64,000 bases of DNA from a virus. The stretch lies in the IMG/VR virus record IMGVR_UViG_3300012932_000063. One strand, given 5' to 3'. The notes under the pieces were generated by a model that saw nothing but the letters and a program-made list of their open reading frames with translations, ran no database searches and was not told the origin of the DNA. Positions 10,302-11,530 of this stretch are shown in pieces (the stretch's first letter is position 1; each line of letters starts with the position of its first letter). The position numbers and the translations under genes are program-made.

Positions 10302-11483
10302 GTGCGCACAAAGAAGTTGAAATTGGATTATGAAAATCAGTTGGATGTTATCAATGCAGCGACAGCGTCTGTATGGGGTGAGTGTTTGGAACTCAAGAAA
10401 ATGTGGGACTATGCACATGGATATAGAACTGGTGCGAAACTTGATATGCCGTGTGAGTTATGGATGGATAAGCACTTATCTAAATCTCAGCCTCTGCATT
10501 CACAGAGTATTCAAGAGGTGCGAGCGAGATATTTCAAAAACAGAAAGGGTTATCGCGAACTTCGCAAAAATGGACACACAAAAGCGAAACAGCCCTATAA
10601 GGACAAAATATTCCAGACAACTACGTGGAAGAAATCCGCTATTCACTTCAAAGGAAATACGCTGTTTTTATCGAATGGTAGACATGGCGATCCGTTAAAG
10701 GTAAAACTCCCAAAGAATTTTGATTTGAAATATGCCATATCGCATATTGCGATTGTGGAGTTAGTTTACAACAATGGTCAGTATTCACTACACTTTGTGT
10801 ATAACGTGGGTAAACCCGTAAAATCTAAAGCCAAAGGCATCGCAGGCGTTGATATTGGCGAAATACATCCTATAGTGAGCTATGATGGTGATAGGGTGAT
10901 GATTTTCAATGGTCGATATATCCGCAGTCTATACCGGCTGAGAAACAAAGTAATCGCTTCTTTTGGTACAAAGATTGATAGATGTAAACGCGGTTCCAAA
11001 CGTCATAAGGCACTTATCAGGCGTAAATGGAAACGCATCAGGCAAATTGACAATCAGATAACTGATGGATTACACAAACACACGACTGATTTTGTGAAGA
11101 TGTGTAAAGAGAAATATATTGGCACAATTGTGATTGGCGATTTGACTGGTATAAGAAACAGGATAGATTACGGCAAGCGTGCTAACCAGAAACTACATCA
11201 ATGGGCATTCGGCAAAGTAACAGAACTGATTACTTACAAAGCGAAGGCTTTAGGCATCAAAGTGGAATTAATCAACGAAGCCTACACCTCTCAGACCTGC
11301 CCCAAATGTGGGAATCGAAAGAAGACTAACAATCGTGAGTTTAAGTGCAAATGCGGTTTTACATATCATCGCGATGGTGTAGGTGCAATTAACATCAGAC
11401 AGAAATATATAGGTCGCTTGGGCGTGCCTATAAGGAAGACGATATTACCGCCAACTGGCGTGCGATTAGAAGGTAGACAATAA
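10302..11483 (+). CDS. tnpB: TnpB (IS200/IS605-family RNA-guided endonuclease), copy 1
   Basis: RuvC-I GVDIG, IVIGDL, INEAYTSQTCPKCG zinc finger, HRDGVGAINI; homologous to 38780-40003. Confidence 0.93.
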   Translation: MRTKKLKLDYENQLDVINAATASVWGECLELKKMWDYAHGYRTGAKLDMPCELWMDKHLSKSQPLHSQSIQEVRARYFKNRKGYRELRKNGHTKAKQPYKDKIFQTTTWKKSAIHFKGNTLFLSNGRHGDPLKVKLPKNFDLKYAISHIAIVELVYNNGQYSLHFVYNVGKPVKSKAKGIAGVDIGEIHPIVSYDGDRVMIFNGRYIRSLYRLRNKVIASFGTKIDRCKRGSKRHKALIRRKWKRIRQIDNQITDGLHKHTTDFVKMCKEKYIGTIVIGDLTGIRNRIDYGKRANQKLHQWAFGKVTELITYKAKALGIKVELINEAYTSQTCPKCGNRKKTNNREFKCKCGFTYHRDGVGAINIRQKYIGRLGVPIRKTILPPTGVRLEGRQ

Positions 11484-11501
11484 TCTTCTAAAAGAATTAT
11501 C

Positions 11502-11530
11502 TTGACAAATATAATTGATTATGATATAAT
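11502..11530 (+). promoter_or_regulatory. Consensus sigma70 promoter for the three-gene operon
   Basis: TTGACA-17-TATAAT. Confidence 0.75.

Follow-up and report, generated by a model that had tools for sequence, protein, structure and literature searches.

A TnpB nuclease and its omegaRNA are as a rule tied to each other through the overlap of tnpB gene and RNA, which is thought to constrain both. In the part of Altae-Tran et al. (2021) that PMC10691335 relays, stand-alone omegaRNAs work in trans with compatible effectors; immobilised or exapted TnpBs, catalytically intact ones included, are also already published (PMC10691335). Prophage TldRs are nuclease-dead, with neither RuvC triad nor C-terminal zinc finger left, and have their RNA next to the gene (Wiegand et al., PMC10705468). 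TranC and the type V Cas12 effectors arose by omegaRNA splitting, according to the portion of Jin et al. (2025) reported in PMC13565253. Here we describe a tnpB gene, tnpB1, in a 64,000-nt stretch of viral DNA (IMG/VR record IMGVR_UViG_3300012932_000063), called the window below; positions are window positions on the plus strand unless noted. In our view tnpB1 probably represents the protein member of an uncoupled TnpB/omegaRNA pair, maintained by selection in a phage of Candidatus Poribacteria.

The window is phage-like, with 35% GC, genes for portal, ligase, helicase, primase and methyltransferase, and a tRNA cluster. Candidatus Poribacteria, which are sponge symbionts, are the likely host, because the best 80 genomic relatives of TnpB1 all fall there (80/80). 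Megablast of the GenBank phages with positions 9800-13400 gave no match, and a scan of viral contigs with TnpB1 alone found nothing; with a 41-protein alignment (A1) as query the scan returned distant relatives only, at 32-50% identity, which were left out of the analysis. A first metagenome scan for relatives found nothing, and a second found three loci, each scaffold-bearing or truncated. Rfam search of the window yielded tRNAs only and no omegaRNA-type match. Upstream of tnpB1, minus-strand tRNA genes are clustered at 4289-9704, and three of them have Ala anticodons.

tnpB1 (10302-11483) encodes an intact TnpB of 393 aa, with GTG as start codon and AGGTGG as ribosome-binding site. It is preceded by a promoter-like site, TGGACA-17-TATACT (10241-10269); this site and the 5′ UTR have homologous counterparts in the related loci L001 and L002, and comparison of the promoter/5′ UTR region with these two loci showed the left-end hairpin to be absent. 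The protein has the Pfam domains OrfB_IS605 (PF01385, 1.2e-10) and Cas12f1-like_TNB (PF07282, 4.4e-23), and the ISDra2 TnpB structures (8bf8/8exa/8h1j) match its residues 108-375 with an E value of 4e-9. Both this domain and structural homology and the RuvC D-E-D residues place it among the TnpBs. A first, sequence-only reading of the locus had described the RuvC residues as retained, and they are: D184, E326 and D358 are invariant across alignment A1, TnpB1 included. The CxxC..CxC zinc ribbon is also still present, as CPKCG...CKCG. That reading had also seen homology between the C-terminal peptides of TnpB1 and of the second copy in the window, TnpB2 (copy 2, 38780-40003); the quoted peptides do align, and overall identity is 58%. 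It had further placed a new consensus promoter 19 nt past the tnpB1 stop, which ends at 11483, and there we find a sigma-70 promoter matching the consensus at 12 of 12 positions, TTGACA-17-TATAAT with extended TG (11502-11530). This promoter opens a cargo cassette and has counterparts after the tnpB stop in L001, L002 and L097. By its open reading frames the cargo is a three-gene operon (11565-13379), lying between tnpB1 and the first free-standing omegaRNA. The first cargo gene (11565-12275) has a weak match to TIGR04255 (19.6 bits, below the cutoff of 30), and the other two have no match in Pfam or NCBIfam.

Copy 2 is the comparator. Its element (37095-40068) starts with a left end followed by cargo, and its tnpB2 overlaps the omegaRNA/right end; a left-end HMM made from 17 element copies scores 85.8 bits at 37095-37193, and a covariance model of the omegaRNA (R1), built from 25 tnpB-linked scaffolds, scores 159.5 bits at 39913-40068. 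The copy-2 scaffold has six hairpins and runs from AAAGTATCTGGG in the last tnpB2 codons to ...GGAGAGGGTTCAA at 40068. The element is about 2.97 kb long, with the cargo between left end and tnpB2; the left end lies 1.66 kb upstream of tnpB2 and reads TT(C)CAT/TTCAAAAC, then hairpin CTCCATGCTTTAGCTTGGAG. In Poribacteria copies the left end is typically about 0.1-0.4 kb upstream of tnpB; of ten copies examined, half have it at about 0.3 kb.

At the tnpB1 3′ end R1 scores only 15.0 bits (E 0.025), with most pairs broken, and this match is residual coding similarity only. The same region scores 12.4 bits in L001 and 9.3 bits in L002, and 21 linked scaffolds range from 154 to 187 bits. Fold z-scores of the 3′ ends are -2.7 for tnpB1, -0.6 for L001 and -1.2 for L002, against -4.1 to -4.9 for real scaffolds. 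Replacement of the nucleotide core, as the sequence-only reading had claimed, is plain from the letters: copy 2 has tccccgtagtggcg at 39937-39950 and tnpB1 has gtgcctataaggaag at 11425-11439. The missing transposon ends were likewise borne out, with no right-end hairpin following tnpB1 and the copy-2 left end as the sole match of the left-end HMM in the window. By R1 and by the synonymous rate of the tail (below), the former omegaRNA overlap at 11402-11483 is now coding only and its RNA structure has decayed. tnpB1 thus lacks the overlapping scaffold and the left and right ends of a canonical element, and its type occurs in one copy per genome; with the cis overlap and both ends gone it is most probably immobile, as had been proposed. 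Its place is roughly syntenic, downstream of a shared tRNA-rich stretch, in the window, L001, L094 and L096, and the genes directly beside it in the window are not those of the L001 type.

We examined 76 loci for linkage of tnpB and scaffold. A tnpB without scaffold was found only for window tnpB1, L001, L002 (identical to L013) and L018, and the C-terminal peptide imposed by the RNA core is missing in only 4 of 121 close homologues, namely these same four loci. Window, L001, L097 and L002/L013 form a scaffold-less clade, all of its members being without a cis scaffold. In the maximum-likelihood tree, window tnpB1, L001 and L002/L013 are one clade (support 100/97), whose sister is a group of scaffold-bearing Poribacteria copies, 78-79% identical. 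Loss of the scaffold in L018 was independent; its 90% cluster-mate L098 keeps a scaffold of 184.5 bits. The L097 tnpB shows a frameshift, in an assembly of 3x coverage.

This scaffold-less clade is under strong purifying selection. dN/dS is 0.11 between the window gene and L001, 0.08 between the window gene and L002 and 0.09 between L001 and L002, with dS up to 1.9; the tnpB genes of L001, L094, L095 and L096 are identical and were treated as one lineage, with no internal dN/dS. In pairs of mobile copies, dS of the last 36 codons is 2-10 times below that of the body (e.g., 0.197 vs. 0.705 and 0.036 vs. 0.356), a mark left by the overlapping RNA. No such depression is seen in the scaffold-less clade, where dS is 0.65 in the tail and 0.57 elsewhere in the gene, and tail dN/dS is 0.05-0.09; the tail has thus been released from constraint by the RNA and is still constrained as protein. 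Of 92 residues invariant among 37 scaffold-bearing relatives TnpB1 retains 89, and two of the three changes are in the tail, V to I and M to I, at codons that spell the GTAG and ATGG of the RNA core. The comparison of dN/dS with scaffold conservation that the sequence-only reading had suggested thus shows a constrained protein (0.08-0.11) and structurally conserved orphan scaffolds downstream.

Those free-standing scaffolds, placed 2-8 kb downstream by the same reading, exist. R1 finds three of them, all on the tnpB1 strand. Scaffold 1 (R1 match 13570-13715, annotated as 13570-13692; 89.7 bits, z -4.9) has stems 1-5 intact, with compensatory pairs, and its right-end hairpin is replaced by a promoter. 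Scaffold 2 (R1 match 14151-14282, annotated as 14151-14245; 49.4 bits) is decaying, with stem 3 missing and stem 2 imperfect. Scaffold 3 (19156-19299; 106.3 bits over model positions 1-153, z -4.7, with covariation) is full-length, has an intact right-end hairpin and ends in ...GATGTCA; it begins 4 nt past the stop of a methyltransferase gene. A possible stub at 14749-14769 (7.2 bits, not significant) holds only the first 15 or so nt of a scaffold and is consistent with a further decayed copy, and another stub at 17361-17395, also not significant by R1, resembles the right-end hairpin region and would fit the same description. Scaffold 3 occupies a 133-nt gap flanked by genes for a DNA methyltransferase-Mrr fusion and for an HNH endonuclease (17418-19752). 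Such intergenic spots are also typical of other selfish nucleases. The region 13570-14770 consists of two and a half tandem units built from scaffold fragment, TGGACA-17-TAGGAT promoter and small gene, and plausible ORFs are found on both strands (13741-14007 plus and 13868-14074 minus; 14297-14623 plus and 14430-14672 minus). ARAGORN calls a 96-nt tRNA-Met on the minus strand at 13616-13711, overlapping scaffold 1; it is absent from the Rfam results and probably spurious.

The orphans have conserved sequence and structure and no overlapping effector ORF, as expected of stand-alone omegaRNAs. In folding they form the six hairpins seen in linked scaffolds (z -4.1 to -4.9). In an alignment of four orphans and two linked scaffolds, with the structure derived from those same sequences, 96.9% of cells pair and 22 of 39 pairs are changed on both sides; slid-partner controls give 39-52% pairing. 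Part of this covariation could have been inherited from differences already present among the mobile ancestors. Stem 3, which is coding in linked copies, has a shortened loop in the orphans, where its sequence differs from one to the next and is perfectly paired every time. A derived CCCATT...AATGTTGC frame is common to all four orphans, which suggests descent from one non-coding ancestor. Their identity is 66-82% with scaffolds of TnpB1's sister clade and 55-69% with those of the copy-2 clade, and the non-coding half of the L002 orphan is 96% identical to that of the sister clade; by these identities the orphans belong to the lineage of TnpB1 rather than that of copy 2.

The 16-nt 3′ flanks of the orphans have no second match in the window beside TT(C/G)AT with up to three mismatches allowed, and hence no target there. 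Scaffolds 13570 and 14151 have an identical 3′ flank, which is the promoter of the next gene; their guide function is doubtful because they are hairpin-less and have this promoter flank in common. The flank starts with TTAACTGGACAA, 12 nt that also make up the -35 region of the promoter of tnpB1. Possibly the hairpin-less scaffolds use such short TTAACTGGACAA matches to bind the phage's own promoters. In the window ACTGGACA is present 5 times, where 1.4 would be expected; targeting by guides was considered for this excess and not adopted, and we read it as a local -35 variant.

The relatives repeat the layout of the window. Three of the four lineages have a free-standing omegaRNA 0.3-2.1 kb downstream of tnpB, on the same strand, behind a promoter-plus-cargo cassette. 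L097 has a tnpB like that of the window, a promoter, a 55-aa gene, a hairpin and then a scaffold 340 nt past the stop (107.6 bits); L002/L013 has a scaffold 1.3 kb past the tnpB stop (143.2 bits); and L018 has three truncated scaffolds 0.3-1.2 kb past it. In the L001-type phage, of which 12 kb of genome is known, tnpB is intact and the local scaffold is deleted, with the preceding hairpin and AAAG...TTGC remaining. At 7580-7770 L001 also has a tnpB 3′ end in pseudo-copy, interrupted by in-frame stops; it is nearer to the window tnpB1 tail than L001's own gene is, and is followed by the same promoter type and by the deleted-omegaRNA relic AAAG...TTGC (8020-8100). This arrangement is evidence for exchange of cassettes by recombination at this junction. 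A basic protein of ~50-55 aa with the motif ARCR(S/V)E..KK and a coiled-coil tail is encoded in L097 (10699-10866), L018 (3630-3797) and L002 (about 4290-4442). In all three loci, including the independently derived L018, its gene is directly upstream of a GC hairpin and free-standing omegaRNA, and the protein could be an accessory factor of the uncoupled RNA; it has no homologue in the window.

The Poribacteria chromosome G001 has seven tnpB copies and seven scaffold matches, six of which form overlapping pairs; the seventh tnpB is scaffold-less, and 1.3 kb downstream of it, with the same orientation, comes the seventh scaffold. This sole scaffold-less tnpB and the sole high-scoring full-length orphan of the chromosome share one 4.1-kb insertion, a low-GC island (38-41% vs. 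about 50%) on the minus strand of L090 (G001:C2:4488000-4507999, 10608-14711). Besides the scaffold-less tnpB and two genes that diverge from it, the island carries a gene for a membrane protein, a short direct repeat and the omegaRNA plus right end. On the right the island is bounded by right-end ...GGGTTCAA (TCAA); on the left it begins after a T-rich pentamer, which stands where the family has its TT(C/G)AT motif. By the left-end HMM this unit too is without a left-end hairpin. Its exact empty site is present in the related genomes G003 and G023. TTATC was considered as the TAM and rejected, the empty sites and the left-end alignment placing the junction after TT(C/G)AT, about 12 nt further. 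Free-standing scaffolds are rare in the hosts: across 13 Poribacteria genomes 34 of 38 scaffold matches coincide with the 3′ end of a tnpB, and no full-length tnpB other than the G001 gene is without a scaffold there. Because there is one insertion, with empty sites, gene, cargo and RNA descend together and the internal cargo has pushed the RNA downstream. This bears on two parts of the sequence-only reading. Its claim that tnpB1 lost the omegaRNA stands for the cis copy (15 vs. 159.5 bits) and needs amending for the RNA itself, which the G001 island and its empty sites indicate was displaced downstream. Its term domestication is apt insofar as the protein is kept by selection; the change is better named uncoupling of an effector gene from a guide gene, because it was an insertion of promoter plus cargo that displaced the omegaRNA.

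Other accounts of the locus have to be set against uncoupling. TnpB1 might have been exapted without any use of the orphans, acting with another RNA or as a guide-independent nuclease, toxin or regulator, and the orphans would then be insertion debris. Catalytically intact exapted TnpBs with obscure roles are published (PMC10691335), L001 has a tnpB without a local orphan, and the orphan flanks are without a found target. We nevertheless regard this as unlikely, since constraint on the whole protein equals that of active mobile copies, the changes are confined to tail residues that the RNA had imposed, tnpB and orphan pair 1:1 within the single G001 insertion, and the orphans come from TnpB1's own lineage. 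Disappearance of both transposon ends, the perhaps frameshifted relative (L097) and the visible decay of orphan 14151 and the stubs are what one would see if tnpB1 were a recently immobilised IS relic, now decaying, with an ORF intact by accident of time and solo right ends for orphans. Such a relic fits poorly with a scaffold-less state that is monophyletic and spans lineages at dS of about 1.5-1.9, with dN/dS of 0.08-0.09 and no stops, nor does random decay produce the compensatory changes of the orphans; we find this account quite improbable.

The same low standing is given to the suggestion that the orphans are extra guides for TnpB2 or for host-encoded TnpBs, with TnpB1 irrelevant to them. 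TnpB2 is intact, sits in a complete element of the same genome and has the common scaffold architecture, and use of stand-alone omegaRNAs in trans is documented in the material that PMC10691335 passes on; the orphans are nevertheless nearer to the scaffolds of TnpB1's sister clade than to those of TnpB2, and in G001, L097 and L018 the orphan adjoins a scaffold-less tnpB, not a gene of copy-2 type. It is very improbable, finally, that tnpB1, the cargo and the right end at 19299 make up one very large, still mobile IS200/IS605-type transposon. The related 4.1-kb G001 unit does have an exact empty site and ends at the right-end TCAA, and copy 2 attests that cargo-bearing elements occur here. Against this, no left-end sequence or hairpin is found upstream of tnpB1 within the window, the G001 unit is likewise without a left-end hairpin, and tnpB1 is roughly syntenic in related phage contigs, downstream of the shared tRNA-rich region, with differing immediate neighbours.

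Uncoupling, the reading that we prefer, would have proceeded as follows. In the ancestor of the clade (window, L001, L097, L002/L013) a promoter-plus-cargo cassette would have come between the tnpB ORF and the omegaRNA/right end, with duplication of the roughly 95-nt dual-use stretch. The in-ORF copy would then have evolved as protein only, its RNA structure decaying and its synonymous sites freed, and the downstream copy as RNA only, losing its coding capacity, shortening the loop of stem 3 and keeping its stems by compensatory changes. With the left end lost, TnpA peel-and-paste movement of the unit would no longer be possible. In the window, the RNA of the lineage would survive in two free-standing genes, at 13570 and at 19156, and in the decaying copy at 14151. 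We infer that TnpB1 is made from its own promoter and loads the orphan RNAs in trans; these may be cut from read-through transcripts of upstream operons. The complex is predicted to be an RNA-guided DNA nuclease acting next to the TT(C/G)AT motif, and its most plausible role would be homing, or exclusion, against related phages without the insertion. An extended version, in which TnpB1 is an immobile effector armed in trans by several separately evolving guide genes scattered among cargo cassettes, cutting or excluding related phages without these insertions and so driving the linked cargo, is tentative and rather unlikely to hold in full.

The locus would be a natural unlocking of the gene/RNA overlap, with an empty site as control: the overlap duplicated, the copies specialised, and a promoter and cargo placed between them, with both uncoupled halves under long selection (dS above 1.5). 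The layout of a CRISPR-effector locus, a protein gene plus separate guide-RNA genes, would have been reached without a CRISPR array and inside a phage. If this is true, the locus is a present-day instance of effector/guide uncoupling, a step that TnpB is presumed to have passed through in becoming Cas12. It also offers a testable system for asking whether a natural TnpB can act purely in trans, whether phages turn such nucleases on each other, and which residues and RNA positions only the overlap fixed, here the tail V and M codons (GTAG, ATGG).

TnpB1 is a bona fide TnpB that differs from a canonical IS copy, a TldR and a Cas12 in the features defining each. With the TnpBs of IS200/IS605 elements (IS1341-type; ISDra2, PDB 8EXA/8H1J) it shares protein family, domains, RuvC DED triad and zinc ribbon, and its sister copies, 78-79% identical, have the canonical scaffold, a right-end TCAA and TT(C/G)AT 5′ of the left end. 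tnpB1 itself differs in having no 3′ scaffold and no ends, a strong promoter and cargo after the stop, and release of synonymous constraint in the tail. TldRs are similar in being immobilised, phage-borne TnpB derivatives with a separately recognisable guide-RNA gene nearby, but TnpB1 keeps the triad and the zinc motif, and its RNA is 2-8 kb away. Like TranC and Cas12, the tnpB1 locus has taken a step off transposon architecture, its RNA gene being untied from the effector ORF; in the window, however, the RNA is whole, with no tracrRNA/crRNA split, no repeat-spacer array and no adaptation genes. A search for a CRISPR repeat array found none in the window, and with the RNA full-length and unsplit the suggestion of a Cas12-like effector is not supported. 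The free-standing homing endonucleases of phages, such as Seg and Mob of T4, are protein-guided, whereas TnpB1 would be RNA-guided; by analogy the same role is proposed for it, that of a fixed phage nuclease that cuts relatives and drives cargo (PMC13565253).

The stand-alone omegaRNAs are a parallel for the RNA half: as PMC10691335 relates from Altae-Tran et al. (2021), they too are effector-less scaffolds beside compatible effectors in one genome. The present case differs in that the effector has lost its own RNA, so that loading in trans would be obligatory, that the RNA is in the same locus behind a cargo cassette, and that the window orphans are without left end or transposase, two of them also without right-end hairpin. 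Stand-alone omegaRNAs and exapted TnpBs are already known; new here is the combination, in a phage, of an effector whose own RNA overlap has dissolved with lineage-matched, free-standing guide genes behind cargo.
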